NCBI GenBank assembly: GCA_013375395.1 | Contig: JABXJW010000001.1 | Location: forward strand, 1 to 63,283 | DNA from: Desulfobacterales bacterium | GTDB lineage: Bacteria > Desulfobacterota > Desulfobacteria > Desulfobacterales > C00003060 | Reading direction: 5' to 3' | DNA: 63,283 nt | Shown here: in pieces, positions 1 to 17,760 of the stretch | Numbering within the stretch: the first letter of the stretch is position 1 | How the letters are laid out: each line of letters starts with the position of its first letter | Made by a program: the position numbers and the translations under genes | Notes under the pieces: generated by a model | What the model was told of the DNA's origin: nothing | The model's database searches: none | What the model saw: the letters and a program-made list of their open reading frames with translations, nothing else

Positions 1-372
1 TGAAAGGGTGAAGGAGCTTGGCCCGGCAAAACACTTGATTAAGAAGACGGCGTATGATTCACCGCCCGTTCGTTTCACTCACTCGAGGCGCGAAGTTCGC
101 TGAGAATCCATTTTTTCATTTGCCGGGAGATGACGGCAAATGAAAACGACTCCACCGCTTTTGGCGGTAAAGGCACGTTTCGGGCAAGGGAACGACAGAT
201 CTTGCAGGCATGATGGCTCTGGGGATGTTGCCCGAAGGGCTGAGCGTTTTTCCCTGATCGACATCTCCCGATCAGGGAAAACTAACCCTCCTCTGCGCCC
301 TCAGCGTCTCGAACGAGCGCAGCGAGTGGGCGGTTAACAAGATAGATTTTGCAATAAAGTAGGAATACTCCC

Positions 373-1323
373 GTGCTGAACTACACCTCAAAGATTCGCG
401 AGACTGCAAGGCGGTTGCTCACAGATCAACAAGTGGACGCTGTGATCGGATTTAGGCGGGGCACCGTGCCCATGATGTCTCAGCCCGTGTTGATCACCAG
501 GCCGGAAGATGCCGACACACTCTGCTGGGACAGTTTCTGCGGGATGAATCTTGCCAACTATCTGCCCAAGCGCCAGGGGCGTATCGCTGTTGTGGCCAAG
601 GGGTGCGATTCGCGAAATATAGTAGTGCATATTTTGGAAAATCAGATCAAGCGGGACCAGCTCTTTGTCATGGGGATCCCCTGCAAAGGGATGGTGGACC
701 GGCACAAGGTTGCGAATGCCTTGAAGGGTCAAGAACCCCTTAAGGTGATAGAAGATTCCGAAAAGATTACGGCAAAAGGAGAGGGCCTTGAGGAGTCTTT
801 CAACAAGGCTGATGTGCTCCAGGAAAACTGCACCATCTGTATCCACCGCAACCCGGTGCTCTATGACGAGCTCATGGCAGAGCCTGTAGATGAACAGGAG
901 GGCATCGAGCGGAATGCGGATGTGAAAGACGTTGAGGCGATGAGCACTGATGAGCGCTGGAAGTACTTTTGCGATTTGGTAGCTTCGTGCATCCGCTGCT
1001 ATGCATGCCGGGATGCGTGCCCCCTTTGCTATTGTCCCACCTGCTTTGTGGATGAATCGCGGCCCCAGTGGCTGGGAAAGAGTATTGATCCGACGGATAC
1101 CCTCACGTTTCACTTGCTCAGGGCGTTTCACTGCACGGGTCGCTGCACGGATTGCGGAGCGTGCGAGCGGGCCTGTCCGATGGGTATCAGGGTTCGGCAG
1201 TTTACCAAGAAGCTGGAAAAGGATGTGCTCGAGCTTTTCGACTATGAGGCGGGCATGACTCTTGAGGCAAGACCACCGCTTGATGCATACCGGCCGGATG
1301 ACCCAGGAGATTTCATTAGATGA
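373..1323 (+). CDS. Fe-S oxidoreductase subunit (FrhB-like / 4Fe-4S ferredoxin-type)
   Basis: 316-aa ORF with a GTG start. Cys clusters CIRCYACRDACPLCYCPTCF and CTDCGACERACP. Sits directly upstream of an AsrA/HydB-like gene. Confidence 0.6.
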   Translation: MLNYTSKIRETARRLLTDQQVDAVIGFRRGTVPMMSQPVLITRPEDADTLCWDSFCGMNLANYLPKRQGRIAVVAKGCDSRNIVVHILENQIKRDQLFVMGIPCKGMVDRHKVANALKGQEPLKVIEDSEKITAKGEGLEESFNKADVLQENCTICIHRNPVLYDELMAEPVDEQEGIERNADVKDVEAMSTDERWKYFCDLVASCIRCYACRDACPLCYCPTCFVDESRPQWLGKSIDPTDTLTFHLLRAFHCTGRCTDCGACERACPMGIRVRQFTKKLEKDVLELFDYEAGMTLEARPPLDAYRPDDPGDFIR

Positions 1324-1381
1324 TATTTATGACTAAATCTCTGCGTTCTTTGCGGCTCTGCGGTGAGACAATACAGGTAAA

Positions 1382-2449
1382 ATGAAAGTGCTAAAGATCG
1401 CAAAAGAAAGGTTCCCCGATTTCCTGGACAGCCTGAAGGACGCCTACCGGCTCTTCGGCCCGGTGCGGCAGGAAGACAGAGTCGATTTCGTGCCGATCGA
1501 AAATGCCGCTCAGATAGATCTTTCTTTCCAAAACAGCCTTCTTTCTCCCAAGTCTCTATTTCTTCCTCAGTCCGAGCGGATGTTTGAATACAGCTTGGAC
1601 CCTGCCGCAGAGGACGCAAATATCCTAAAAGAAGCGCCAAAAGACTACTTGCCCCGCGCCGTTATTGGCATCCGCCCCTGCGATGCAAAGGCTTTTGAGC
1701 TGGTGGATGTAAACTTTGACACGCAACAACACCGAGACCCGTGGTGGGTGGGTTCCAGGAAGGCCGCCACCCTGGTGGGACTGGCATGCACTGCGCCCTG
1801 TTCCACCTGTTTTTGCACATCAGTGGGCGGGGGGCCATTTGATGAGGCAGGGCTGGACGTTTTGCTGGTGGACATTGGCGAGGCCTTTTTGGCCAAGGTG
1901 CTTACAGAAAAAGGGGAGAAACTGTTTGGTGTTGCAAGAACCGCAACCCCCTCCCAAACCCTAACCATTGAAGCCGGCGAAGAAGATCTGATTCAAAAGG
2001 CTGTCGCCCTGCACGATCAAGCAGAAGCCAAGATCGTTTCAAAAGTGAACACATCCAGACTTGCAGAACTTGACACCCTGGCGCTTCACGGGGCCGACTT
2101 CTGGGAAGAAGTGCAATTTGCCTGCATCAACTGCGGGGTTTGCACCTATCTTTGTCCTACCTGCTGGTGCTTTGACATTCAGGATGAGACTTATGGCCGT
2201 GCCGGTGACCGGATTCGAAACTGGGACTCTTGCATGTTTCCCCTTTTCACTCTGCATGCCTCAGGACACAATCCTCGAGGAGAAAAGATCCAAAGAGTCC
2301 GCCAGCGCTTCATGCACAAACTGAAATACTATGTAGACAAATACAACAACGGAGTTGCCTGTGTCGGTTGCGGCCGCTGCGTCCAGCACTGCCCGGTGAA
2401 CATTGACATTCGCGCGGTCTGCCGGATGATGAACGAGCATAAGAGTTGA
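1382..2449 (+). CDS. AsrA/HydB-like 4Fe-4S protein (anaerobic sulfite reductase A / sulfhydrogenase beta family)
   Basis: 355 aa. Motifs CINCGVCTYLCPTCWCFD and CVGCGRCVQHCPVNIDI. The N-terminal half is typical of the family. Confidence 0.7.
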   Translation: MKVLKIAKERFPDFLDSLKDAYRLFGPVRQEDRVDFVPIENAAQIDLSFQNSLLSPKSLFLPQSERMFEYSLDPAAEDANILKEAPKDYLPRAVIGIRPCDAKAFELVDVNFDTQQHRDPWWVGSRKAATLVGLACTAPCSTCFCTSVGGGPFDEAGLDVLLVDIGEAFLAKVLTEKGEKLFGVARTATPSQTLTIEAGEEDLIQKAVALHDQAEAKIVSKVNTSRLAELDTLALHGADFWEEVQFACINCGVCTYLCPTCWCFDIQDETYGRAGDRIRNWDSCMFPLFTLHASGHNPRGEKIQRVRQRFMHKLKYYVDKYNNGVACVGCGRCVQHCPVNIDIRAVCRMMNEHKS

Positions 2450-2455
2450 GTTGCG

Positions 2456-2570
2456 GGTTACGAGTCAATGTCATCAACTTAAGAGTCCAATCTCCCCCCT
2501 TTGCCAAAGGGGGGTCGGGGGGGATTTTCAGTGGTCATATTCCTTAAGTTAATGACATTGGGTTACGAGT
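2456..2570. mobile_element. MITE-like insertion (about 95 bp) with a 10-bp target-site duplication
   Basis: Inverted repeats caatgtcatcaacttaag (2466-2483) and cttaagttaatgacattg (2543-2560) are flanked by the direct repeat GGTTACGAGT (2456-2465 and 2561-2570). The core contains the hairpin cccccctttgccaaagggggg. Confidence 0.6.
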
Positions 2571-2615
2571 TGCCGGTCAACGTCTGGTGGTTAGCACTAT
2601 CGTAGGGGGCCCCAA

Positions 2616-2763
2616 ATGATACGAATATACACTCTTCTCTGGATCGGACTTTTTGCCCTTGCCGTCTTAAATGGGGCAATTCGAGAGATTTTTTACAAAG
2701 AGGCTCTCGGGGAACTCGCTGCTCACCAATTATCCACCCTTACAGGCTGCCTGCTCTTTTTTC
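2616..2763 (+). pseudogene. truncated small membrane protein
   Basis: Hydrophobic N-terminus MIRIYTLLWIGLFALAVLNGAIREIF...STLTGCLLFF. The reading frame runs straight into the inverted-repeat element that starts at 2764 and then becomes non-membrane-like. Confidence 0.3.
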
Positions 2764-2924
2764 GGGAGCATCCGCAGTTTCTGACTAAACCGTTTCAGAA
2801 CCAAAAAATGTACCCTGAACCGGATTTCCTCGCCTGTTCTTGAGGTAAGCTCATCCTTATTTCATTCAAAAATTGGGCTATGGCGTCCTTAAAACCCTAT
2901 CGGTCAGAAACTCCGGATGCTCCC
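2764..2924. mobile_element. 161-bp element bounded by 22-bp inverted repeats
   Basis: gggagcatccgcagtttctgac (2764-2785) matches the reverse complement of gtcagaaactccggatgctccc (2903-2924) at 21 of 22 positions. Confidence 0.5.
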
Positions 2925-3541
2925 ATCTTCTTGTCTGAATCGATGTAGCTCCAGGCACGCTTCAAAGCCCCTGCAATAGTCGTACAAGTGGTCCGGCTAA
3001 TACGCCAAGGGCTGAAAAGACCTCCTTGGCCACCACAGCAATACCTTGATCCTTCATAGAGAAACTAAGGAAACCAAGCGTCCCGGATTTCTACACAAAA
3101 ATGGCCTCCGCTACGGCTTGCCTGGGCAGTTCATATTCCACGGGGGCCTGGGTGGAGTGTTCGCGCGTACCGACCGATCGAGCAACCTTGGACATAACAA
3201 AGTCCACGGCCCGGTCCACCAATTCAAAGGCGGTACCCTTGAAAACCTAGTAGGACGGTATGGGCTTCCGGTTCCCTAATCACCCACAATTAAACAAAAG
3301 CCATGGCACAAAAAGCTGCATGTGATCCGTGACCAGATCTTCCGCCTCTTACAAGTCCGGCCACAGCAAGAATTCATCCATGGCCGCTATCAGGGCAAGA
3401 TGGACAAAAGCCTTTTCAGCAAAGACCATGAGTTTGTCGATCAATCGGTCATGGGCATCGCCGAGCCGTCACCAAAGCAGATCATCTGGTGGCCTTGCCT
3501 TGTTCAGGCAACACTTCTTATGTTTTTTGCCGCTTCCTCTA

Positions 3542-4687
3542 TTAACCATCCAATCCCACATTTTTCAGGCGTCTGACAAAACTTGGTTTCCGGCTGTGTT
3601 TTTCGCGAATACTTCTCAACCTTTCCTTAAATATCTTGTCCTTACTAATCTTTTTGCTGAGATCGCGCAGGTCAACAAGTAATGTAACTGCTTCATCATA
3701 ATTGGACGGCAGAGTTGTTTTAATGAGTTCATGTACTTTTTCCCAAACCATATCTTCACTTTTGGCAAGATCATTCAGGTGTTTTTCGCAAATGATCACC
3801 TTTTCCCGTTCTTTTCGAGCCCGCTCTTTGGCTTTTTGCTCAGCGATTCGATGTTCTCTTGCGGCTGCGGATGCCTCTGCTTGTGTGATCAGTTCTTCAA
3901 CTGTGCGAGGCTTCTTCCCCGATGCATAATTATTTTCAACCGAGACTATATTTTGAAATCGTTGCATTAATTCAGTTCCAAGATGAGGATCACGGCCTTT
4001 GACCAGACGGAACAATATTTCATCTTTTTCACTTTCAGGGAAATTGTTGATCCAGCATTTCAACTCTTTCCGATCCGTCTCCTTGTTTTCAGAAGCGCTA
4101 TTTTCTGCTGCAACAGCGATAAAGTCTGTGTCGATCCGCATAAAGTCGACAAAGCTTTTTAGCGGCGCATTCAGGTTATCTAAATTTGGCGGTACCGGCG
4201 GCTCCGGCTCGTCGTCTTCAAAATCACCTGCCTGAGCACAATAGAGCCAGCCAAGATACAGGCATCTGTAATCACCGCCTATGATGTCTGATCGCAGTGA
4301 GATTAACGATGAAAGCCAGCCTTCGCCTTCCTCCCATTCATAATCATCTGTTTCGGAAGTAAACTCCAGAATCAAATATTCCCCTTTTTCATATACGGCC
4401 GCACTTTCTCCAATACAATATTCTTTTGTCAAATCAACATTGATCAATTTTCGCGGAATCCGCAACATGAACCTATGTGTCCCCCAATTGGCGACATAAA
4501 GAAAGGTATCGAAATATTTTTCCATCAATGACAATGGATTACCCCTAAAATCAGCCCAATTGTACGTGTTCACAAAGCTGGTGGGGGTGATCTGCGCTCT
4601 TGAAGACAGTTTTCTGAGCGCCTGAATGCCTTTTTCGTTTAATGGCTTATCAATTGCTTGAAACTCGTAATATTGATATTCACTCAT
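3542..4687 (-). CDS. conserved hypothetical protein (acidic middle, Lys/Glu-rich helical C-terminus)
   Basis: 381-aa intact ORF beginning MSEYQYYEFQAIDKPLNEKGIQALRKLSSRAQITP. No catalytic motif recognised. Confidence 0.65.
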   Translation of the reverse strand: MSEYQYYEFQAIDKPLNEKGIQALRKLSSRAQITPTSFVNTYNWADFRGNPLSLMEKYFDTFLYVANWGTHRFMLRIPRKLINVDLTKEYCIGESAAVYEKGEYLILEFTSETDDYEWEEGEGWLSSLISLRSDIIGGDYRCLYLGWLYCAQAGDFEDDEPEPPVPPNLDNLNAPLKSFVDFMRIDTDFIAVAAENSASENKETDRKELKCWINNFPESEKDEILFRLVKGRDPHLGTELMQRFQNIVSVENNYASGKKPRTVEELITQAEASAAAREHRIAEQKAKERARKEREKVIICEKHLNDLAKSEDMVWEKVHELIKTTLPSNYDEAVTLLVDLRDLSKKISKDKIFKERLRSIREKHSRKPSFVRRLKNVGLDG

Positions 4688-4815
4688 GGTTCCTCAACAT
4701 TGACCGGTTTTGTCAAATGTGCAGGTCTGGTACCTTGCTTTTTGCTTAGCACAGGGCTTTCCGTGAACCATACCCTTCTTGCCGTCCGCTGGATGAACTG
4801 GTTACCTATTGCAGA

Positions 4816-5181
4816 TTACCAATGGTGTGCCAAAATCAACCCTGTCTCCTCAAGGTTTTGAAGCAAGTCACGTCTTTCTCTTGCGAGGACCTTCAGACGG
4901 CGCTTCTTGTATGGCTTGACTCGCGCGACTTCATGGACAATGCTTGCAAGCTCTGCGATTCTTGGATTGGAGGATGACGCGAGCACCCTTAGTCTGGAAA
5001 CATTCTTTTTCGATATGTGGGATTGCTTCAAGTAATTGAAAATTTCCTCTTGCTGCTCAATAACGTCCCGTTCCTCTTTTGGCTTGCGGGCGCACTCCTT
5101 ACACACATGAATCCTATGGCCTTTACCCGAAAACTTCTCATTGGGGCGGGTACGCCCGCAAATCCTGCAATAATGTCCCAT
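4816..5181 (-). CDS. zinc-ribbon protein
   Basis: 121 aa. CRICG...(15 aa)...CKEC at the N-terminus, followed by a basic helical tail. Confidence 0.55.
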   Translation of the reverse strand: MGHYCRICGRTRPNEKFSGKGHRIHVCKECARKPKEERDVIEQQEEIFNYLKQSHISKKNVSRLRVLASSSNPRIAELASIVHEVARVKPYKKRRLKVLARERRDLLQNLEETGLILAHHW

Positions 5182-5293
5182 AATACTCTTGTATCCTTAG
5201 AATTGATACCCGCTCTTGTTCGTTATATGCATCGACTATGATTTCCATAGGGATTCGATGCTCTCGATCCTTATCTTCCTTGACCTCAGACAT
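5138..5293 (-). CDS. small ORF (51 aa) overlapping the zinc-ribbon gene start
   Basis: A GGAGG sits 4 nt upstream of the ATG at 5293. Sequence MSEVKEDKDREHRIPMEIIVDAYNEQER... It overlaps the next ORF by 44 nt in a different frame. Confidence 0.4.
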   Translation of the reverse strand: MSEVKEDKDREHRIPMEIIVDAYNEQERVSILRIQEYYGTLLQDLRAYPPQ

Positions 5294-5486
5294 TAAGCCT
5301 CCATGGGCTTGTGTTGGATTTCTTCCCATGTGCCAAGCCGGAATGCCGGTTCAGCCCGGCATTAGCGAAAGCTATGAATCAAAGCGAGCCCCCCGTGCTT
5401 CAAGACGACTTCGGAATCTGTAGCCCCTGTAACGTGTCTCGATGGCATCAACCATATACTTGCAGTCCTCCTGACGTGCTCACTTG

Positions 5487-5544
5487 CTGGAGCTGAGAGG
5501 CGGCGAGTTTACGAGCCGTCCAGCTCCAGCGACGGGTTAGCTGG
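5487..5544 (-). repeat. attC-like imperfect palindrome B
   Basis: Minus strand reads CCAGCTAAC-cc-GTCGCTGGAGCTG...TCTCAGCTCCAGC. It shares a framework with element A and overlaps the last 12 codons of the 238-aa ORF. The 3' GTTRRRY box is absent. Confidence 0.4.
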
Positions 5545-6225
5545 CAAATGTATGAGATAGGAATTTTGTATGCTATTGATCCTGCTCACAAATCCCAATA
5601 AATTCAGGAAGGATTTTATCAAATCTTGATACAGCTCATGAAAGAGCATCAATGAAGCCAACAATGGCTTTGTCCCAATCGGCTCAGCCATTACGGCATC
5701 GACGCCTGACGTTAAATTCAAGCAGCCCTGCTCCCTTGAATCGCCATAGGGCAGATACACCCCAGCCCAATTTGGGTGTGTGAATTCACATAATGAAAAA
5801 TAGAGCTCTTCGAATGCCTTACTTCTTTTTCCCACATGTTGAACTTCGGTTAGAGCATTATAGTGCTTCACCGTACCTGTTCCATCACGGCTACCGAAGA
5901 GAGCCTGCATCAGAAAATCGTCCGTCGTATCAATAACGCCTGTATTTAGAGTTTTGCTTAACTTTTCATAGCAAACATAAAACATTGCCACTGTTTCCAT
6001 AACAGCTCTAGTAAGGATAAACGCGGGTATGTATTTGCCGTGCTCGTATTGCTCATATGCAGCTCTGCTGACATCAACAAGTCGATATTGGTACAACTCT
6101 CGGAGTGAAATGAGTTTGAACGGGACTTTTGATATGGAACTGGTATCTTCCTTAGTGACTTTTCTCAGGCCGCGGGCTGAAAAGGCTTCTATCAGGTTGC
6201 CTATAGTTTGAAGAGTCTCCAACAT
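5509..6225 (-). CDS. hypothetical protein
   Basis: 238-aa intact ORF in AT-rich DNA. Contains the motif CEFTHPNWAG. No family recognised. Confidence 0.6.
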   Translation of the reverse strand: MLETLQTIGNLIEAFSARGLRKVTKEDTSSISKVPFKLISLRELYQYRLVDVSRAAYEQYEHGKYIPAFILTRAVMETVAMFYVCYEKLSKTLNTGVIDTTDDFLMQALFGSRDGTGTVKHYNALTEVQHVGKRSKAFEELYFSLCEFTHPNWAGVYLPYGDSREQGCLNLTSGVDAVMAEPIGTKPLLASLMLFHELYQDLIKSFLNLLGFVSRINSIQNSYLIHLPANPSLELDGS

Positions 6226-6241
6226 TTCAATTTACCACAGG

Positions 6242-6664
6242 TTAGCCTGTTACCCCGAGTAGTTCTCTAAAATCAGATTCAATGACTTGCTTTATCTTCT
6301 TATTCTGAGATTCAAAAGTATCTCGTTCTTCGTAAAAAGCTTTTATAAAATCATTTATATTTTCACGCTTTGATTGGTAATAGATATCAATAGAAAGATT
6401 GAACAGCAGGGTGTTTAATTCCTTTATCTTATTCGTAAGATCTTCTGAGAAATAGATTGCGTGATTCTCAACGAATGAATGTAGGTCAAAAAACGTATCA
6501 ATAAGATTATCTGTCTTTTTCCTCAACTCCTGATAATCGTCCATTTGAAATTCAGCTATAAGACAGGCTGCGGATTTTTCGAGGGCAACGATTTTCTTGT
6601 AGAGCTGTTCGATTGCGTCTGCTCTTCGATCATGAAGTTTTGAGAACCTAATTTGATGTGTCAA
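6242..6664 (-). CDS. hypothetical helical protein (TTG start, or the 3' part of an interrupted gene)
   Basis: 140-aa ORF. It is in frame with the upstream 49-codon TM ORF across a single TAA at 6703-6701. Confidence 0.5.
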   Translation of the reverse strand: MTHQIRFSKLHDRRADAIEQLYKKIVALEKSAACLIAEFQMDDYQELRKKTDNLIDTFFDLHSFVENHAIYFSEDLTNKIKELNTLLFNLSIDIYYQSKRENINDFIKAFYEERDTFESQNKKIKQVIESDFRELLGVTG

Positions 6665-6700
6665 GGCTTCAATATTAAGCGATGATTTAAGTGTTTCGAG

Positions 6701-6850
6701 TTATTTATCGGCCCCCCTTTTTAAGTCCAATTTATATTTTTCTATATCTTTCGTGAGCAGGTGAAGAATTAACGACCGAACAAGCCAAGCGACAACAGTT
6801 AGTAAAACTGCCCCGCCACCGACGAATTTGAGCAACTCTATCCACATCAT
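6701..6850 (-). CDS. 49-aa single-TM ORF (below the ORF-track cutoff)
   Basis: MMWIELLKFVGGGAVLLTVVAWLVRSLILHLLTKDIEKYKLDLKRGADK followed by a stop. Starts 16 nt after attC-like element A. Confidence 0.35.
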   Translation of the reverse strand: MMWIELLKFVGGGAVLLTVVAWLVRSLILHLLTKDIEKYKLDLKRGADK

Positions 6851-6866
6851 AGAATTTATCCTGCCA

Positions 6867-6939
6867 GGCTAACGCTGGAGCTGAGACGCGGGAAACGCGT
6901 CAGCGTTTGCCCGTCGATTCTCCAGCGACTTGTTAGACC
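6867..6939 (-). repeat. attC-like imperfect palindrome A
   Basis: Minus strand reads GGTCTAAC-aagtc-GCTGGAG...GGGcAAACGC/GCGTTTCCC...CTCCAGC-GTTAGCC. It begins immediately after the TAA stop of the 139-aa ORF and ends 16 nt before the next ATG. Confidence 0.45.
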
Positions 6940-7359
6940 TTAAGCCTTCGCTTTCATTTGACATCTCTTAATTATTACGATTTCTTCAAAGAGAGTGGGT
7001 AGAGTTATTGTTGCGATGAAAATGGTTAATATTAATCCAAGAAGCCCTTCAGTTTTGATAAAAAAGAAAATTATGGCGATAATAAAACCAACAATCATCG
7101 CAGAAAATATCACGTAAGCTCTTTTAGCCACCGAATCTTTCCCAGAATATTTATCCCATTTTTCTTCATCAATTTCATGAGTCGCCGCTGCTCGTAACGA
7201 TACAATGCTTTTCAAAACAAAAAAGACGAAAAGAGAACTTAATACCAAGGCTCCAGGTAAGATGAAATTGAGTAGTAGAATAGGCGCAAGAAATACATAT
7301 GCGCCGTACTTGAATCCATTTGCGGTCTTCATACTTGGATACCAAAAAAAGTTTATCAT
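6940..7359 (-). CDS. integral membrane protein (about 4 TM)
   Basis: 139 aa with four hydrophobic stretches. No family recognised. Confidence 0.6.
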   Translation of the reverse strand: MINFFWYPSMKTANGFKYGAYVFLAPILLLNFILPGALVLSSLFVFFVLKSIVSLRAAATHEIDEEKWDKYSGKDSVAKRAYVIFSAMIVGFIIAIIFFFIKTEGLLGLILTIFIATITLPTLFEEIVIIKRCQMKAKA

Positions 7360-7624
7360 CTTTTTTATATTATGAGGTCTAACCAGTTAGTATATAGTTT
7401 CTAAATAATACCAAATATTTAAAAAACTTGACACCGCCGTTTTGAAGTTTACCAGGGTTTTCTGGCTGGATAATTATCATTTTGTAATGTTATAGGGAAA
7501 TCGGATAATTTCATATGATAAAGACACCTTCAGAATTAAAGACTCAACCCTGGGGCTTTTTGAACTATGGGGGTCATTGACCGGTACGCTCCCCGCAAGC
7601 CCCGCCCTTCAGGGAGAGGCTTCA

Positions 7625-8077
7625 CTATTTTTTCCCCTTCTCAGATACGGAATATCCGGTCTGCGGCTCACAGACTTCTATCTGATCAGCAGGCACTTTA
7701 ACCACTTTGCCGTCGCGCCAGATCACAATCGAATCTCCGGTGCGCTTGAGATCGGCATAGGTTAGGAAGCCCCTTCTTGAAACGGCGGTGGACAACGTCC
7801 TCCGGAACATTGTGCCCGCCTCTCCGTACACGGTCTCCGATACGTTCGAGGGCAATATCGATACTGGAAATCCACTGAAAAAAGATGATTCTTGGGTCCC
7901 GAGCTTCTTCTTTTGTTTGCTTTTCTTTTTCGAGTTGGCAATGGAAACAAAATAGGAGCTTACGCGGCGGGCTTCTGCGATCTCGTTGGTGATGCCCTCT
8001 TCGGAGAAGAGAAAGTGCCTTCTTGGTTCTTCAAAGGGTGAGTTGATGACCGGGTTTTCTATGACAACCTGTTTCAT
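7625..8077 (-). pseudogene. chimeric remnant: N-terminus of a type III restriction Res-like helicase fused to unrelated sequence
   Basis: The first roughly 55 aa, MKQVVIENPVINSPFEEPRRHFLFSEEGITNEIAEARRVSSYF, match the conserved Res N-terminus. The helicase body is missing and the ORF is only 150 aa. Confidence 0.5.
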
Positions 8078-8568
8078 TCATCCTTACCCTATGTTTGTGT
8101 AGTGGGTACGCCGGGCTGGGCCTTGCACCGCAGTATCCGGGACGTAAGATCATAAATCGCCCCTCCCAGCACATCTACATCACGCGGACCATGGCCAGGC
8201 TGAGGAGATGCATGACAAATTGGGGCTTAGCTCTATTTCGGACCCTCCTTGCTGAACATCACGTACCACTTTGATTCATCGGTCACAAGGGAAAACCGCC
8301 TTCTTGCGCGGCAAGTCCGGCTACAGTAGCGCCCTGCTTTCGGGACTCGATGGCCCGCAGAATACGCCATTGCCCGGCCAACCGGATTGTATAGGAATTT
8401 CCCTTGGAATCTGAACGCTTAAGAATATTCAGGGTAATGGAGAATTCCGGGGACATAATATATATCTCTTGTGTTTCGTGTTTTCGATCTCAGTCAGCCG
8501 GAACAGGACACAATTAGCTGCCCGTAAGTCTTTCTCCTTCACGAACAAAACTCATCACCGCCAATAGT

Positions 8569-8721
8569 GACGGCTTCGTAAAAAGTCCAACTTCTACGTT
8601 GCGCTGCATCCTTCGTCATTGCGGCGTACCATAAGTAGGCATCATTCCTCAGGGTTTGCGCGCCTTGAATTTGGAGCTTTTTACTTTGCCGTCTAATTTG
8701 GACTTTTTACGAGACCATCAA
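8569..8721 (+). repeat. REP/MITE family A, copy 1
   Basis: Termini gacggcttcgtaaaaagtcca ... tggactttttacgagaccatca are inverted (18 of 21). Homologous to the copies at 13544-13697 and 17575-17760. Confidence 0.8.
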
Positions 8722-9851
8722 TTATGCTTCAAAAAATGGCTAAAATATGAGATGGGATCTATAACTCTCACGCGATTCTTGTCATAGGGTCGTTTGATTT
8801 TGCCAACGATCTGGGTAGCCTTTTTGGGTCTCAGCCGCTGAGAGTAATAGAGAAGGGATTTTGATATGTTCTCATCAGAATGCTTGACCTCGATCAACTC
8901 CTCCAATTCACCTTCTTTTACAATAGCAAAATCGACTTCCCGGCCCTCCTTGTCACGGATGTATCGCAGTTCATAGCGATAGCCGTCCCGGTCTTCAAGA
9001 AAGTGCAATCGCTTGAGCAAAGACGTGGCAACAAGGTTTTCAAAACGAGCGCCCTCGTCCCCAAGGACATCACCATTATCGAAAAAATATACTTTGGGAG
9101 GCTTCAGCACCGCACGAGACAAAGACTTGGTGTAGGGGCGAACACTGAATACAAGATACATCCTCTCCAACACTTCCAGCCACGACTTAGCTGTCTTGTG
9201 AGAAATCTGCAAGTCAGTGGCAAGGTTGGATAGCCTAATCAGCCCTCCCACCCGATGTCGCAACGAGTCAAGGAACAGGCCAAGCAGTTGAATGTTGCGA
9301 ATGGATTCCAGATCGCGGATATCCTCCCGCAAGACTCTATCAAAGCGCTCTCGTCGCCAGCGCCGTGCCGCTCGTTCATCTCCATCAAGAAACGGCTCGG
9401 GGAAGCCGCCGACGGTCATAAGGCGATCAAGAGCCTTCTTGGCAGAGATGCCTTTTGGGATTTCATCCAGCGTAAACGGGTGCAAACGCCAGTAATGATA
9501 CCGGCCCATTAGTGAGTCGCCTCCTCGACGATAGATGTCGAGACGAGCAGAGCCCGTGATGAGAAAAGAATGGATTTCGTGTGATACGTCGTAAATGCCC
9601 TTGATCCATCCCTTCCACCGGGGGAATTTGTGCAATTCATCAAATACGAGCAACGTATTATCCGTACTCCATTTTTTCTGTAGAATATCCTGCCGATCTT
9701 CATCGAAATCCCAGTTCAGGTAGCGACCGTCAGGGAAGGCCTCAGAGAGGATAGCTTTAGCAAGTGTGGTTTTACCCACCTGACGAGGGCCTCCCACGAA
9801 AACCATCTTCTTTCCCAAATCTTCAAGAACATACGGTGCAATATATCGCAT
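8718..9851 (-). CDS. AAA+ ATPase with DUF4143-type C-terminal domain
   Basis: 377 aa. Walker A GGPRQVGKTT, Walker B LLVFDELH. Overall architecture typical of the ATP-binding/DUF4143 family. Confidence 0.8.
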   Translation of the reverse strand: MRYIAPYVLEDLGKKMVFVGGPRQVGKTTLAKAILSEAFPDGRYLNWDFDEDRQDILQKKWSTDNTLLVFDELHKFPRWKGWIKGIYDVSHEIHSFLITGSARLDIYRRGGDSLMGRYHYWRLHPFTLDEIPKGISAKKALDRLMTVGGFPEPFLDGDERAARRWRRERFDRVLREDIRDLESIRNIQLLGLFLDSLRHRVGGLIRLSNLATDLQISHKTAKSWLEVLERMYLVFSVRPYTKSLSRAVLKPPKVYFFDNGDVLGDEGARFENLVATSLLKRLHFLEDRDGYRYELRYIRDKEGREVDFAIVKEGELEELIEVKHSDENISKSLLYYSQRLRPKKATQIVGKIKRPYDKNRVRVIDPISYFSHFLKHN

Positions 9852-9857
9852 ACGGCT

Positions 9858-9885
9858 ATTTTAGGCTGTAGTCCAAAATAGTCAA
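9858..9885 (-). promoter_or_regulatory. sigma70-like promoter giving a near-leaderless transcript
   Basis: Minus strand reads TTGACT-16 nt-TAAAAT-agccgt-ATG. There is no SD. It lies inside the 14-bp-arm palindrome gtagtccaaaatag/ctattttggactac (9868-9901). Confidence 0.4.
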
Positions 9886-10021
9886 GGCTATTTTGGACTA
9901 CGATAACAATCAGACTGTTTTGGAGTATGCTTATGCGGTTTTGTATGACGGCTTACGACATTCCCGCTCAATTCGTTTGGAATGCCCTGCCCGAAGCCAT
10001 CCTTTCACGAGTCGGCCGGAC

Positions 10022-10049
10022 TAAAGTTTCTTAGTATAAACTCCGATAA
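10022..10049 (+). promoter_or_regulatory. sigma28 (FliA)-type promoter
   Basis: TAAAGTTT (10022-10029), 13 nt, then CCGATAA (10043-10049). The E. coli consensus is TAAAGTTT-N11-GCCGATAA. It lies 41 nt upstream of the flgE-like ATG. Confidence 0.5.
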
Positions 10050-10090
10050 ATAAGTGAGTGTGTGTGTAACAAATTCAGGGGGAGACAAAG

Positions 10091-11503
10091 ATGATAGACG
10101 GTATTTGGCCTGCAATATCAGCGTTAAAGACCATAGAGAAAAAGCTGGACGTTTCCGCCAACAACACCTCCAATGTCAATACACAGGGATTCAAAACCAG
10201 CAGCGCCAGCTCACAGGAGGCATCCCCTCAAGATGTCTCTGCCGCCTGCGGGACATCACAGGTAGGACAAGGAACAGACCTGGCGGCAATTTCGCAGGAT
10301 TTTTCTTCCGGAATGTTCGAATCTACCACCTCTCCTACCGACATGGCTATTGGGGGTATTGGATTTTTTATGGTCAAGGACACAGGAGGCGGGGACTACT
10401 TTACAAGGGACGGCCAGTTTCACTTTGACAAGAACGGCCGGTTTGTGACGGCTGCCGGCCACGTAGTCCAGGGGTGGAAGCTTGACCCGATTGCCGGCCA
10501 ACCGCAAGGGGCAATCCGGGGTGTGACATTGTCCTCATTTACTTCTCCCCCGCAAGAGACGACTCATGGAAAAACGATCATAAACCTTAATTCAAATGCT
10601 CAAGACAAGTCACCCGGCTCAGACGCTCTTGCAAGTGCATGGGACGGAGACAATCCCGATGGGAGCTATATCGGCGACAATGCATACGAATACCGCACAT
10701 CAATAAAGGCATATGATCGTGTCGGCGGCACACATGACATTACATTCTATTTTGACAAAGCATCTGCCCGTTCTACATGGGAATATATCGTCACTGCCAA
10801 CCCGGACGATGACCTAAGATTGGGGGCTGCAGGCGACGACCTTGGATTATTGGCCAGGGGAACCTTGACATTTGACGATTCCGGCGACATTTCAGATATG
10901 ACCATGGACATTGATGATGGGGCCGGCAACTGGATAGCTCAAGATGTTGCCACGGATCTTGCCAATGGTCGTTTCACGTACCATCCAGACTTTCTGGGCG
11001 CAGCAGACGGCTCCACTCAAATGTCTATTCAGCTCGATCTCGGCTCTTCTTATGATGGCTCATCATGGGTTAAGGACTCCCTTTCCTCTACTCAGCATGG
11101 CGCGGCGTCGAATGCCGTCCATTACTTTGCAGACGGATACGGGGCAGGCGATCTTCAGTCGGTCAGCGTCAGCGGGGACGGAGTCATTAGCGGCAACTAT
11201 TCCAATGGTCAAGCCTTGAACCTGTTTCAGGTGGCGATTGCGAAATTTAATAATCCGCAGGGCCTAAATAAAATCGGCAATAATCTGTATGCAAAAACCA
11301 GCGAGTCGGGCGACGCCATTGCCGGCCGGCCGGGGACAAACGGACTGGGCGGTATTGTCCCCAATGCACTGGAGCAGTCGAACGCTGACATGGCAAAAGA
11401 GTCCGTGAAATTGATACTGATGAGAAGGAGTTTTCAGGCAAATCTTGATGTGATTCGCACCAAAGACGAAATGACAGGAGATCTGGTCAATATCATTTCG
11501 TGA
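10091..11503 (+). CDS. flgE: flagellar hook protein FlgE-like
   Basis: 470 aa. N-terminal LDVSANNTSNVNTQGFK. C-terminal rod/hook domain NALEQSNADMAKESVKLILMRRSFQANLDVIRTKDEM. Upstream RBS GGGGGAG. Confidence 0.8.
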   Translation: MIDGIWPAISALKTIEKKLDVSANNTSNVNTQGFKTSSASSQEASPQDVSAACGTSQVGQGTDLAAISQDFSSGMFESTTSPTDMAIGGIGFFMVKDTGGGDYFTRDGQFHFDKNGRFVTAAGHVVQGWKLDPIAGQPQGAIRGVTLSSFTSPPQETTHGKTIINLNSNAQDKSPGSDALASAWDGDNPDGSYIGDNAYEYRTSIKAYDRVGGTHDITFYFDKASARSTWEYIVTANPDDDLRLGAAGDDLGLLARGTLTFDDSGDISDMTMDIDDGAGNWIAQDVATDLANGRFTYHPDFLGAADGSTQMSIQLDLGSSYDGSSWVKDSLSSTQHGAASNAVHYFADGYGAGDLQSVSVSGDGVISGNYSNGQALNLFQVAIAKFNNPQGLNKIGNNLYAKTSESGDAIAGRPGTNGLGGIVPNALEQSNADMAKESVKLILMRRSFQANLDVIRTKDEMTGDLVNIIS

Positions 11504-11515
11504 CGGAAACACGCA

Positions 11516-11718
11516 GGCCCTGTGGCAAAGATCAAACAATTTTCAGGACTCAATGGATCTGCCTGCTGCGGGTTCAGTCCGGCCAGGAGATATGATCCAA
11601 GCCCTTTTCCGCCAAGAAATCGTCGCAGTATGTCCTCTTCGATCCCTTCAAGGCAAAAGGACTGCTGCGTCAGATCGATCACCAAGATCCTGCCGTAAAA
11701 TCCGTACATGCTCTCCAA
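11516..11718 (-). pseudogene. aldehyde:ferredoxin oxidoreductase (AOR), N-terminal fragment only
   Basis: MYGFYGRILVIDLT...FLGGKGLGSYLL...DPLSPENCLIFATGPA matches the AOR N-terminal domain. Similarity ends about 13 nt beyond the flgE stop. Confidence 0.7.
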
Positions 11719-12041
11719 TAAAACCTCTTTTCTCGTCGGTAGTTTACCTTTCGGGGCAAGTGAAATGCTGAACGTAGGCCCACAACCATTTCCACAGAGA
11801 GGTTCGTTATTCGTGAATCGTTATTCGCGGCTCGTAACGTCTTCCGTTCGATGGTTACCGGCACAAAGCGAAGTTTTTGCGCTACACGAACTGCGATTTC
11901 CCGTTCCCGGTTCCCGGTTCAGGTGTATCCTTAAATGCATTGGGACCGAAGACAATCACTAGGCATAGCAGCGCTACGTCAAGAATAGAAACCTGCGGAG
12001 AACGCAGTATCGGGACAAAAGATGCCATTTCTGGATGGACA

Positions 12042-13148
12042 CTAGTAATCTTCCCCCAACATATGCACATTGCCTATTCGGGTGCGCCGGAGGCCGGCCT
12101 TTTGGGCAATTTCCCGGCAACGCAGGGCATGGCTTCGGGAAGTTGTGGGAAGGTCGTGTAAGTAGAACTGCGGATAAAACGCCAAAAGGCTGTACGGGAT
12201 GTCCGGATTCAAGCTGCTGATGTATCGGGAAAGACCGTCGACCTCTCGCTCATCCACGTAACCGGGCACCAAGAGGGTGCTCGCGATCAAAAACGGGGGC
12301 TCGGGCCGCTGCCGGACCAATTTGCTCAACTCCTTGAAATTATCCAAAGTATTCTTGTTTGTCACCCAGCACAGGGCCTTGTGAAGTCTCTCATCCCAGG
12401 CCTTGAGGTCAAACTTGATGCAGCCGCCTGATTGCAGGGAAACTTGGGCCATCATGTCCAGATAAGGCCGGCCGGCGGCGCCGTTTGTCTCCCAGCATAT
12501 CCTCAAGATACGGTCCGGATTTCTCTTCAAGGCCACCCTGGACGCCTTTAAGGCATGCAGGACCTGGGGGCCGGGGTCTCCTCCAAAATAGCAGATACAG
12601 CTCGTCGCCTCATCTACGGCGCCTGCCAGCTCTGTTGCGCGAAGTTTTCTTTGGGAAAACGTTTTTTCCTTAAAATGGTAATTCTGACAGTAGAGGCAGT
12701 TAAAGGAACACGCATGATAGAACACAGCCAGGTTCTTGTAGCCGCGTTCAGGGCCTCTCGTGTAGGCATAGCGTGGGTATCCGCAGCCGGTGCCTGCCGG
12801 GCACACGAAATCGGCCACACAATTGGTTGGAAGGGGATCATAGTAGTAGGAAAGGTTTCCCTCATGGGGCCGCCCGCCCACCAGTTTGCCGTCCCTGACC
12901 CTGCGAAGACCGCAGAAACCGGGCTGGCCCTCCGGGATACTGCACTTGTTTGCACAAAGGTTACAGGAGACGCCATGCGGATCATGAGGAGGTTCTGTCG
13001 GAAGGCCGTAAGCCTTGCGGCTTTTGGCATGCACTTTGGCGATCTGTGGCCACACCTCGGAAAAATGACCGCGGATGCAATCTGCACAAAACCCGATGAC
13101 ATCTGAAATGGTCTTGCCGGACCTTTCACAATAGCCGCAAGTGCCCAT
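12042..13148 (-). CDS. radical SAM protein (PflA / AmmeMemoRadiSam-like) with N-terminal zinc ribbon
   Basis: 368 aa. CSFNCLYCQN (CxxxCxxC), CNLCANKCSIPEGQPGFCGLRR, and N-terminal CGYC...CADC. Confidence 0.75.
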   Translation of the reverse strand: MGTCGYCERSGKTISDVIGFCADCIRGHFSEVWPQIAKVHAKSRKAYGLPTEPPHDPHGVSCNLCANKCSIPEGQPGFCGLRRVRDGKLVGGRPHEGNLSYYYDPLPTNCVADFVCPAGTGCGYPRYAYTRGPERGYKNLAVFYHACSFNCLYCQNYHFKEKTFSQRKLRATELAGAVDEATSCICYFGGDPGPQVLHALKASRVALKRNPDRILRICWETNGAAGRPYLDMMAQVSLQSGGCIKFDLKAWDERLHKALCWVTNKNTLDNFKELSKLVRQRPEPPFLIASTLLVPGYVDEREVDGLSRYISSLNPDIPYSLLAFYPQFYLHDLPTTSRSHALRCREIAQKAGLRRTRIGNVHMLGEDY

Positions 13149-13197
13149 GTATCCAGGCTATCTCGCCCCTGCTCACAAGTAAATAGTAAAGCGTTGC

Positions 13198-13539
13198 TTA
13201 CTCCGCCTCAATATGGCTGATTTCAAGCTCTTTTCCGCAGATAATCTCGGCCGCGATTTCGCCACATTCCGGGCAGAGAAAAAGGGCACTATCCACCTTG
13301 AAGTCGATGTTGCAATTCCGGCAGCGCCCCACGGCAGGCACGACCTCTATGTTAAGCTCGGCGTCTTCTGCCACCGTTCCCTTTGTAATGACCTCAAATG
13401 CAAAGCTCAGGGCTTCCGGGACAACGGTTGAAAGGCTCCCTATGCGAACATGCAACTGGGTGACCCTGGAGACCCCGTGCTTGTCGCTTTCATCCTCGAT
13501 GATCTTGAGCATACTTTGGGCAATGGAGACTTCGTGCAT
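13198..13539 (-). CDS. hypA: hydrogenase nickel incorporation protein HypA
   Basis: 113 aa. MHEVSIAQSML at the N-terminus and CRNC...CPEC zinc site. Confidence 0.85.
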   Translation of the reverse strand: MHEVSIAQSMLKIIEDESDKHGVSRVTQLHVRIGSLSTVVPEALSFAFEVITKGTVAEDAELNIEVVPAVGRCRNCNIDFKVDSALFLCPECGEIAAEIICGKELEISHIEAE

Positions 13540-13543
13540 CGAT

Positions 13544-13697
13544 CAATATGGTCTCACAAAAAGTCCAAATGGACGGCAAAGTAAAAAGCTCCAGATGCAA
13601 GGCGCGCGAGTCTTGAGGAATGAGGCGTACTTAAAGTACGTCGCAATGACGAAAGATGAAGCGCAACGCAGCAGGTGGACTTTTTACGAAGCCGTCA
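13544..13697 (-). repeat. REP/MITE family A, copy 2 (reverse orientation)
   Basis: Reverse complement of copy 1. Fills the hypA-ppiD intergenic space. Confidence 0.8.
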
Positions 13698-17546: not shown

Positions 17547-17574
17547 AACATCCTCCAAGCATATACTGAAATTT

Positions 17575-17760
17575 GACGGCTTCGTAAAAAGTCCAACTTC
17601 TGCGTTGCGCTGCATCCTTCGTCACTGCGGCGTACCATAAGTACGCCTCATTCCTCAGGATTGCGCCTGACGGCTTAAAAAGAGGTGCGCGCCTTGAATT
17701 TTGGTCCGCCTTCGGCGGATTACTTTGCCGTCTAATTTGGACTTTTTACGAGACCATCAA
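17575..17760 (+). repeat. REP/MITE family A, copy 3 (with an internal insertion of about 35 bp)
   Basis: Same termini as copy 1. Immediately upstream of the aconitase gene. Confidence 0.8.

Follow-up and report, generated by a model that had tools for sequence, protein, structure and literature searches.

Two probable integron gene cassettes, one of them ending in a decayed attC site, in a Desulfobacterales contig without a nearby integron integrase

Introduction

The question raised by this locus is whether two G+C-rich inverted repeats lying at the ends of open reading frames are attC sites that bound integron cassettes and, if so, how such cassettes came to lie where no integron integrase is found. 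In its bottom strand an attC site forms a hairpin in which the R''/R' box is followed by unpaired spacers and by an L box carrying bulged bases, with a variable loop at the end, and the tyrosine recombinase IntI joins attC with attI, with another attC or with a genomic site. Crossover takes place between G and TT of the R' box (G|TT), so that TTRRRY stands at the start of the linear cassette and pairs with the R'' box of that cassette. The whole stretch of DNA analysed here (the window) comprises 63,283 nt. A preliminary description had proposed from its letters that attC-type sites bound cassettes in the absence of an integrase, and the matches to covariance models, the homology breakpoints at G|TT and the null result of the integrase search given below are in line with this. 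Our main reading, to which we give a probability of about 0.88, is that positions 7383-5477 (minus strand) hold a two-site CALIN, in which two integron gene cassettes lie without an integron integrase in the vicinity.

Results

An intact attC site and the family to which it belongs

The first element (A) and the cassette that it closes are composed as follows.

attC-A, 6867..6939, minus strand: intact site, GGTCTAAC-AAGTC-GCTGGAG...CTCCAGC-GTTAGCC
R'' box of attC-A, 6939-6932: GGTCTAAC
5' spacer of attC-A, 6931-6927: AAGTC
L'', loop and L' of attC-A, 6926-6880
3' spacer of attC-A, 6879-6874: TCCAGC
R' box of attC-A, 6873-6867: GTTAGCC
139-aa ORF, 7359-6940, minus strand: cargo of cassette 1, with hydrophobic segments; stop TAA 6942-6940
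Cassette 1, 6873..7382, minus strand: 510 nt; TTAGACC..., the 139-aa ORF and attC-A up to the G of the R' box
Left junction of cassette 1, 7376..7392, minus strand: ACTAAC-TG-G|TTAGACC, with the crossover between G7383 and T7382

Direct reading bore out the preliminary account of this region, in which the stop of the 139-aa ORF is followed by the element at 6939-6867 and then by an ATG: the R'' box of A starts 1 nt past the stop codon, and 16 nt separate R' from the next ATG (6850). The core boxes are GTCTAAC and GTTAGCC, position 6 of the R' box being C and not R. A scores 98 bits with covariance model R1 and 94.8 bits (E 8.5e-26) with the independent model R2, for which 28 sites, all of them in other genomes, served as input and elements A and B of the window were left out. 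The fold of A has an energy of -23.4 kcal/mol (z = -4.9 for the bottom strand and -4.1 for the top strand). It had been remarked that A lacks a spacer between L' and R'; this holds for the minimum-energy fold, which has no unpaired spacer on the R' side, but not for the canonical register, which has unpaired spacers of 5 and 6 nt, carries all bulges on the L'' arm and costs 3.3-4.6 kcal/mol more. Covariation within the family does not choose between the registers, the core being too constant (10 of 19 inner pairs are invariant, and scores are no better than those of shuffles). By eye, sites of the L055 and L052 types keep the canonical register, including a GCTG/CAGC to CCTG/CAGG change.

A genome scan gave 31 loci that share the 53-nt core, preceded by RYYYAAC-AAGTC and followed by GTT..., and over these 31 species-level genomes the core is almost invariant. 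Desulfobacterota-type MAGs account for 22 of the 31 loci, and the nine assigned to other phyla could reflect transfer or mis-binning. About nine family sites have GTTCG or GTTCT in place of GTTRR. Three of the loci (L032, L012 and L035) also carry integron integrases (474, 439 and 362 bits respectively with TIGR02249, for which the cut-off is 265 bits), which are divergent and lie 1-4 kb from the family sites; association with an integrase is thus a property found for the attC family and not within the window itself. The order in L035 is intI, G|TTATGC, a 304-aa ORF, GCATAAC and the family attC. The preliminary description had pointed to an attC model as a check on its reading, and the model matched by A and B is one whose members adjoin intI in these three loci. 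Over 192 kb of sequence surrounding family sites, a strict heuristic picked out another 29 attC-like sites; shuffled sequence gave 0. In its relaxed form the heuristic gave 38 matches over the whole window against 20-38 in shuffles and is therefore unspecific, so that only the strict version was used. A co-oriented ORF ends just upstream (within tens of nucleotides) of R'' in 25 of 29 sites, a count that takes in 27 family sites elsewhere together with A and B. By its model score and its surroundings, A is an intact member of a widespread, near-invariant attC family.

Cassette 1 has the same boundaries in unrelated contigs

The boundaries of cassette 1 were set by alignment with other contigs and by the complementarity of its 5' end with R'' (8/8): the R'' box of A has its exact reverse complement, GTTAGACC, at 7383-7376, and in the whole window GTTAGACC is present at just two places, one at each end of cassette 1. 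That each cassette begins with the complement of its own R'' box, as had been noticed at the outset, was found to be exact for cassette 1 and true of all but one base for cassette 2 (nine positions with one indel); the same relation is seen in L035 (GTTATGC with GCATAAC) and in L057/L058 (TTAGCAATT with AATTGCTAAC). As regards cassette-level variation at G|TT, also raised in the preliminary description, homology to cassette 1 in three unrelated contigs (L052, L053 and L054) starts exactly at G|TTAGAC and stops at the R'' box GTCTAAC, while the sequence upstream differs from contig to contig and is a family attC in L052. In L053 and L054 the upstream sequences are unrelated and look attC-like by eye. 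The 5' end co-varies with R'': GTTAGACC is combined with GGTCTAAC in three contigs, and GTTAGACT with AGTCTAAC in L054. Co-variation over about 500 nt would point to a circular cassette intermediate, which is the sole sensible reading that we see. Circular cassette 1 would show the junction ...CTCCAGCG|TTAGACC, and the cassette could be mobilisable by IntI supplied in trans.

No Pfam family above cut-off was found for the 139-aa ORF, and the exact protein has no record elsewhere. Its homologues form 11 clusters, all of them metagenomic, three of which were seen within cassette arrays.

The half-site upstream of the left junction is not an attC; it could be genomic (attG-like), attI-like or a collapsed site. 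The 100 nt upstream of cassette 1 fold no better than shuffles (z +0.6 and 0.0), the covariance model gives the left junction 4.5 bits (E 7), and no attC, attI homology or intI remnant was found upstream of the cassette. A single promoter-like match (7434-7405) is within chance expectation. Neither 7384-7700 nor 4690-5485 has similarity to any fetched locus by blastn or tblastx, the intI-proximal regions of L012, L032 and L035 included.

Cassette 2 ends in a degenerate relative of A

Cassette 1 is followed directly by a second putative cassette, composed as follows.

Cassette 2, 5483..6872, minus strand: about 1.39 kb; TTAGCCTGG..., an interrupted ORF, the 238-aa ORF and decayed attC-B
Interrupted ORF, first gene of cassette 2, 6242..6850, minus strand: a single in-frame TAA at 6703-6701
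238-aa ORF, 5509..6225, minus strand: weakly DUF5677-like (Pfam E 9.7e-5, below cut-off); stop 5511-5509
attC-B, decayed, 5477..5544, minus strand: R'' region CCAGCTAAC at 5544-5536; spacer CCGTC
Inner and 3' parts of attC-B: L box GCTGGAG...TCTCAGC, TCCAGC, an AA insertion, and GTGAGCA (5483-5477) in place of GTTRRRY

That B shares the framework of A and overlaps the 3' end of the 238-aa ORF had been seen from the letters alone and was found again on analysis (5544-5477), as was the caveat that B has no GTT box: GCTAAC is kept, and R' reads GTGAGCA after the AA insertion, so that by its core boxes B alone does not qualify as an attC. The 5' end of cassette 2, GTTAGCCTGG (6873-6864), matches CCAGCTAAC in the R'' of B save for one base. 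B scores 30.3 bits with R1 and 26.3 bits (E 6e-5) with the independent R2, and its fold has z values of -2.6 and -2.0. An intact counterpart is found in L055/L056, where a homologue 71% identical to the 238-aa ORF is followed by a B-type attC with the R' box GTTAGGT, the L055 site scoring 42.4 bits. B is a mutated member of a sister type. Homologues of the 238-aa ORF are about 221 aa long, covering 84-86% of the query, and in the alignment with this region the stop of the L055 homologue precedes its attC; about 34 C-terminal residues of the 238-aa ORF read into attC-B, apparently because the ancestral stop was lost. The interrupted ORF is a probable pseudogene. The same in-frame stop is present in L001 and L002, where the ORF is called as genes of 49 and 100 aa. 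Because B is without GTT, cassette 2 would be fixed in place.

The pair within the window

A tblastn search of the 63-kb window found no IntI-like sequence (best E 0.27); the four queries were IntI1 and three IntI sequences taken from the fetched loci. A complete integron has intI, attI and a promoter beside the first cassette, and this set was not seen at the locus. The clustering distance of IntegronFinder is 4 kb, and A and B are spaced by 1.39 kb (covariance-model positions). Nothing beyond A and B reaches E <= 1 in the window with model R2, and exact GTCGCTGGAG and TCTCAGCTCCAGC are each confined to A and B within the 63 kb. G+C content is 40-47% over 3-9 kb as against about 52% in the rest of the window. 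A scan of the window with Rfam at gathering thresholds gave no match, nor did a scan for tRNA and tmRNA.

A third site that had been suggested at 4731..4808 (minus strand) was rejected, its fold being no better than shuffles (z +0.9 and +1.3) and no model matching it with filters off at E <= 10. The 381-aa ORF (3542-4687) was considered as a further cassette; no attC follows it and it was not counted. It belongs to a very large family of proteins of about 381 aa, with more than 6000 matches. A search for an empty site by synteny covered 80 metagenome loci with a gene for a relative of the neighbouring Fer4_22 protein (best identity 77%), none of which had the far flank.

Are A and B attC sites?

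The identity of A and B as attC sites is put forward on the strength of a family-specific covariance model and of context, and two other explanations of the inverted repeats have to be set against it. The palindromes might be a REP-like, terminator or regulatory-RNA family, merely attC-like and unrelated to integrons. They do sit right after stop codons as terminators would, and the 53-nt core is unusually conserved for attC; the lack of an Rfam match speaks neither way. We nevertheless regard this as very improbable: neither A nor B is followed by a T-run, and there are two copies only in 63 kb, a point on which the preliminary description, which had considered a repeat family dispersed genome-wide, is now checked for the window. 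It is contradicted, moreover, by the sites of the family, which lie beside intI and in arrays with other RYYYAAC...GTTRRRY hairpins, by the break of homology at G|TT, and by the co-variation of the 5' end of the cassette with an R'' box some 500 nt away. That the likeness of A and B is due to chance, the two being unrelated inverted repeats, would fit with there being only these two copies in the window and with the imperfection of B. It is the least probable explanation of all: against it stand the exact 10-mer and 13-mer matches at A and B only, with compatible spacing, and it is refuted by the E values from the independent model and the 31 near-identical sites in other genomes.

How did the pair arise?

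If A and B are attC sites, the pair would be a remnant or relocated piece of a longer array, or else an insertion at a genomic site. In the latter case the same cassettes would never have belonged to a local integron, a trans-acting integrase having inserted them at attG (consensus 5'-GWT-3'). Such insertion at GWT sites has been demonstrated experimentally, and of 2961 CALINs 1362 have two cassettes only, and most CALINs lie away from transposable elements and intI pseudogenes (Loot et al., bioRxiv 10.1101/2022.09.11.507474); the small cluster described here fits the origin that these authors propose for many two-cassette CALINs. In the window, likewise, neither intI nor an intI pseudogene was found over 63 kb, and the left junction is bare (...CTGG|TTAGACC), with no upstream attC or structured site. 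Against this, the right junction is G|TG and not GWT, with an extra AA, so that the original target is not reconstructable (the empty site would read ...ACTAACTG(G)|(T)GAGCAC...); ACTAAC-TG-GTTAGAC is more like an R''/R' pair than a random GWT site; and co-oriented ORF fragments on both sides, in a block of low G+C, resemble an eroded array or island. We consider insertion in trans possible though on the unlikely side, and slightly favour a remnant, because both flanks consist of co-oriented gene debris and B is already decayed.

Possible exchange of the inner part of attC

Between the window and L053 the gene of cassette 1 has about 90% identity, and neither the 5' end nor the R'' box (GTCTAAC) differs among the four copies of cassette 1. 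What follows R'' does differ: at least three inner attC sequences are found joined to the gene, homology stopping 1-2 nt from the AAC of R''. It is conceivable, if rather doubtful, that the inner attC (spacer, L'', loop, L' and spacer) can be swapped as a unit, the R'' box serving as a second point of crossover. Occasional IntI-mediated recombination of attC sites on the top strand (R'' side) would give this pattern. A gene could in that case exchange its recombination site, and with it its host range, while no new cassette is formed. The apparent swap bears on how cassettes acquire and change recombination sites and may deserve more work.

Discussion

The locus at 7383-5477, read as two integron cassettes without an integrase, is an already known and common situation and no new kind of element; CALINs and isolated cassettes are known from thousands of genomes, and it is otherwise ordinary. 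What it adds is a documented small cassette cluster lacking an integrase from an uncultured sulfate-reducer lineage, and it shows that raw sequence alone lets a first-pass reader spot integron cassettes. The conservation of the attC family and its spread in MAGs from anoxic sediment make it a handy sequence tag for recovering cassettes from metagenomes.

Comparison with known systems

A and B resemble attC sites or 59-base elements such as the aadA7 attC and the repeats of Vibrio cholerae in their core boxes, R'' being RYYYAAC and R' being GTTRRRY (decayed in B), with a 5-nt spacer after R'', a further spacer before R', and an imperfect L''/L' palindrome and a variable loop between the two spacers, in lying immediately past the 3' end of a co-oriented ORF without an obvious promoter, in the G|TT crossover with a cassette start that is the complement of its own R'', and in that all bulged bases are on the L'' arm (A, canonical register). 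They are unlike the aadA7 and V. cholerae sites in that GCTGGAG/CTCCAGC allows a more stable register without the R'-side spacer and in the near-invariance of the 53-nt core across 31 species-level genomes. In class 1 attC sites the first bulged bottom-strand base is G, whereas in A it is C in the canonical register.

Clusters of attC sites that have no integron integrase are known as CALINs (Cury et al. 2016, PMC4889954), and A and B, two attC sites 1.39 kb apart with no intI on the contig, correspond to this at the minimum of two nearby sites, B being degenerate. The CALIN described here is on a MAG contig of an uncultured member of the Desulfobacterales. As most CALINs reportedly do, the locus has only two cassettes and no recognisable intI pseudogene, and if B fails a general attC model the locus might count as a SALIN, which is a single attC site (Loot et al., bioRxiv 10.1101/2022.09.11.507474). 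It differs from the typical CALIN in that one of its two sites is decayed (GTG for GTT), and from the surveyed CALINs in that its host is an uncultured Desulfobacterales MAG and not a complete RefSeq genome. Taxon-specific attC models of sedentary chromosomal integrons include one for the Deltaproteobacteria (Ghaly et al. 2021, PMC8352920), and the family of A is like these in keeping sequence and structure within a clade, but unlike them in that A-type sites are usually single among unlike attC sites and do not recur as strings of one repeat. REP elements and intrinsic terminators share with A and B the form of G+C-rich hairpins just past stop codons; unlike these, A and B have AAC and GTT boxes flanking the hairpin, two copies in 63 kb and no T-run, and their family is tied to intI and cassette arrays, with mobile breakpoints at G|TT.

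Elements A and B in the contig

Reading of the minus strand bore out the coordinates that the preliminary description had given for the 139-aa ORF and for elements A and B. The 139-aa ORF stops at TAA (6942–6940) with element A directly after it, the first ATG beyond A lies 16 nt downstream (at 6850), and element B, which has the framework of A, spans the stop codon of the 238-aa ORF.

6939–6867, minus strand: element A, GGTCTAAC-AAGTC-GCTGGAG...TCTCAGCTCCAGC-GTTAGCC
5544–5486, minus strand: element B, CCAGCTAAC-CCGTC-GCTGGAG...TCTCAGCTCCAGC

A and B are the only places in the window with exact matches to GTCGCTGGAG (10-mer) and TCTCAGCTCCAGC (13-mer), and GTTAGACC occurs twice, once at each end of cassette 1 (7382–6873, minus strand, carrying the 139-aa ORF) in inverted orientation.

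A family of attC sites in other genomes

A single-pass scan of 185,579 species-representative genomes with the pattern GCTGGAG-N3-4-GACGG-N10-40-TCAGCTCCAGC yielded 49 stretches, 31 of which carry a 53-nt core near-identical to that of A, always with RYYYAAC-AAGTC on its 5′ side and GTT... on its 3′ side; the other 18 are chance matches of different lengths in G+C-rich coding sequence. These family loci lie mostly (22/31) in Desulfobacterota-type MAGs, the other nine including Nitrospinae, Pseudomonadota and the isolate Zooshikella ganghwensis. With a covariance model of 28 family sites, A and B excluded, the scores were 94.8 bits (E 8.5e-26) for A and 26.3 bits (E 6e-5) for B, with no other match in the window, and an earlier family model run with filters off over 2400–10100 found A and B alone. 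At about nine of the 31 sites (L006, L011, L018, L020, L031, L037, L038, L039 and L040) the R′ box reads GTTCG... or GTTCT... where GTTRRRY is expected; G+C-rich sequence follows some of these (e.g. L037), as it does GCTCG in L003 and GTTGG in L008, and such sites could be array ends or mark another adjoining element.

When IntI1 (used as a probe only) was the tblastn query, L032, L012 and L035 yielded full-length relatives and L039 a fragment. The three relatives are integron integrases by NCBIfam TIGR02249 (474, 439 and 362 bits respectively; cut-off 265), and in each locus the integrase gene is divergent and 1–4 kb from the family site, matching the canonical integron layout. The clearest case is L035, with the order intI, ...cactt-G|TTATGC, a 304-aa ORF, GCATAAC-AAGTC, the family core and GTTAGCC, so that the 5′ end of the first cassette is complementary to the cassette's own R″ box. 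In L012 there are five more RYYYAAC...GTTRRRY hairpins; four lie between ORFs on the stretch that leads from intI to the family site, and the fifth is past that site. A strict heuristic applied to the 192 kb of the 31 family loci detected a further 29 attC-like sites, against none in shuffled copies. A co-oriented ORF ends just upstream of R″ at 25 out of 29 sites, a set made up of A, B and 27 family sites from elsewhere. From the proximity to intI, the array context and these upstream ORFs we conclude that the family is an attC family, usually represented by one member among unlike attC sites.

Boundaries of cassette 1

Homologues of the 139-aa protein form 11 clusters, all metagenomic, and three were examined with their DNA context. 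The R″ regions compared were as follows.

Window 6927–6939: family-type attC after R″
L054:2228–2250 (array like that of L052, smaller): family-type attC after R″
L052:5811–5835 (array of 13 co-directional small ORFs): unrelated attC after R″
L053:3050–3075 (short contig): second unrelated attC after R″

The four DNAs can be aligned from GTTAGAC to GTCTAAC(A) and no further. Presence or absence of individual ORFs exactly at the G|TT junction had been proposed as a check, and homology does start there in L052–L054. What lies upstream differs from contig to contig: L052 has a family attC (87 bits), L053 and L054 have attC-like palindromes (seen by eye; missed by the heuristic and the models), and the window has AT-rich, unstructured sequence. 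L054 carries a compensatory change: its 5′ end is GTTAGACT instead of the GTTAGACC of the other three, and its R″ is AGTCTAAC instead of their GGTCTAAC. Some 500 nt separate these two segments when the cassette is linear; they pair only once it is circular and its attC is folded.

The most unusual feature is that closely related copies of cassette 1 have unrelated inner attC sequences: homology breaks off at the AAC of R″, to within 1–2 nt. Across the four contigs there is conservation of the gene, of its 5′ end and of the R″ box (GTCTAAC), with about 90% identity between window and L053. Taken as a lead, not a finding, the alignments hint that the inner attC module may have been exchanged at the R″ side.

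Cassette 2 and the decay of element B

The 238-aa protein has shorter homologues, about 221 aa in length, whose ORFs terminate ahead of the attC. The closest (L055/L056, 71% identity) is followed by AGCTAAC-CAGTC-GCTGGAG...CTCAGCTCCAC-GTTAGGT, an intact site of B type (42.4 bits). Relative to this site, B in the window carries an inserted AA and reads GTG where the essential GTT would be, and the stop codon of the 238-aa ORF has been lost, so translation continues into attC-B. Remoter homologues (L057–L059) lie in co-directional, toxin–antitoxin-rich arrays with different attC sites, and their cassette 5′ end, G|TTAGCAATT, is the complement of their own R″ box. The upstream ORF of cassette 2 is interrupted by one in-frame TAA at 6703–6701.

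Folding of the elements

Compared with shuffles, single-stranded A has a far more stable fold (z −4.9 and −4.1) and single-stranded B a moderately more stable one (z −2.6 and −2.0); a weaker third site suspected at 4808–4731 folds less well than the average shuffle and is not upheld. In the minimum-energy fold of A, GCTGGAG/CTCCAGC stacks straight onto the R box, which is the source of the earlier remark that A has no spacer between L′ and R′. That remark holds for this fold, but with the spacers forced unpaired (5 nt AAGTC, 6 nt TCCAGC) A takes a canonical attC fold at a cost of 3.3–4.6 kcal/mol, with the L box GCTG(G)AGA(AT)CG(A)CGGG... and all bulges on the L″ arm. By eye, the L055-type site keeps this register, as does the unrelated attC after the L052 homologue of cassette 1 (CCTG(G)AGTAG(A)CGGC with GCCGCTACTCAGG). 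A covariation count within the family favours neither register, because the core hardly varies.

Setting of the cassettes

The 63,283-bp contig, complete in the window, belongs to the NCBI MAG 'Desulfobacterales bacterium' (locus tags HWN68_...), and the same stretch is present in two further assemblies, L001 (window 1–13623, single mismatch) and L002 (identical). The sole difference from L001 across 13.6 kb is a C/T polymorphism in the R″ box of attC-A (window 6936, L001:6688, minus strand; GGTCTAAC versus GGTTTAAC). G+C content is 40–47% at about 3 to 9 kb and about 52% in the rest of the window, and all sizeable ORFs between 8456 and 3542 are on the minus strand, several of them fragment-like. 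Other features of the window are listed here.

7625–8456 and 5140–5460, minus strand: co-oriented ORF fragments flanking the cassettes
7625–8077: 150-aa ORF, chimera-like by eye (N- and C-terminal pieces unrelated), negative in a Pfam scan
5374, minus strand: truncation of a 27-aa ORF start (MVDAIETRYRGYRFRSRLEAR...)
3542–4687, minus strand: 381-aa ORF, no Pfam match
7405–7434, minus strand: promoter-like match (GTGTCA, 18-nt spacer, TG-n-TATTAT), some 20 nt ahead of the junction of cassette 1
8568–8721 and 17574–17760, opposite orientations: palindromic repeat of about 150–190 nt, arms of ~31 nt (GACGGC..GTAAAAAGTCCAA... pairing with ...TTGGACTTTTTACGA..CCGTCA)
2455–2571: 18-nt inverted repeat, CAATGTCATCAACTTAAG and CTTAAGTTAATGACATTG with 59 nt between, direct repeat CTCGTAACCC on both sides, single copy in the window
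2764–2785/2903–2924: 22-nt inverted repeat, 95% complementary, arms 117 nt apart, non-coding, downstream of a Fer4_22 gene

The ORF fragments around the cassettes, judged from their sequence, suggest decayed accessory genes. The 381-aa ORF belongs to a very large, length-conserved uncharacterised family (>6000 matches, mostly 380–388 aa), with many relatives in Deltaproteobacteria-type MAGs. The promoter-like match could drive the cassettes; such matches are no more numerous in the surrounding region than expected by chance. The palindromic repeat, which appears MITE- or REP-like, has a copy of 77% identity in a Desulfatiglandaceae MAG (L016:2350–2490) and no match in an Rfam search, and 2455–2571 resembles a miniature inverted-repeat element bordered by a target-site duplication.

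Origin of the locus and comparison with known integrons

The interpretation of A and B as integron cassette sites is supported by the family model, the link to integrases and the breakpoints at G|TT. Such cassettes might have been inserted directly at a genomic site, as integrases insert cassettes at genomic GWT sites, named attG (Loot et al., bioRxiv 10.1101/2022.09.11.507474), and a synteny scan for an empty site found no relative close enough to show one. The debris of co-oriented genes on both flanks and the mutations in B slightly favour a fragment of a decayed or relocated array over direct insertion.

With four IntI queries, tblastn found no IntI-like sequence in the window better than E 0.27, and comparison of the sequence preceding cassette 1 with all fetched loci, among them the intI-proximal parts of the three complete integrons (L012, L032 and L035), revealed no similarity. 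The locus therefore fits the published category of CALINs, attC clusters without an integrase (PMC4889954), nearly half of which have just two cassettes and most of which are not near intI pseudogenes (Loot et al., bioRxiv 10.1101/2022.09.11.507474).
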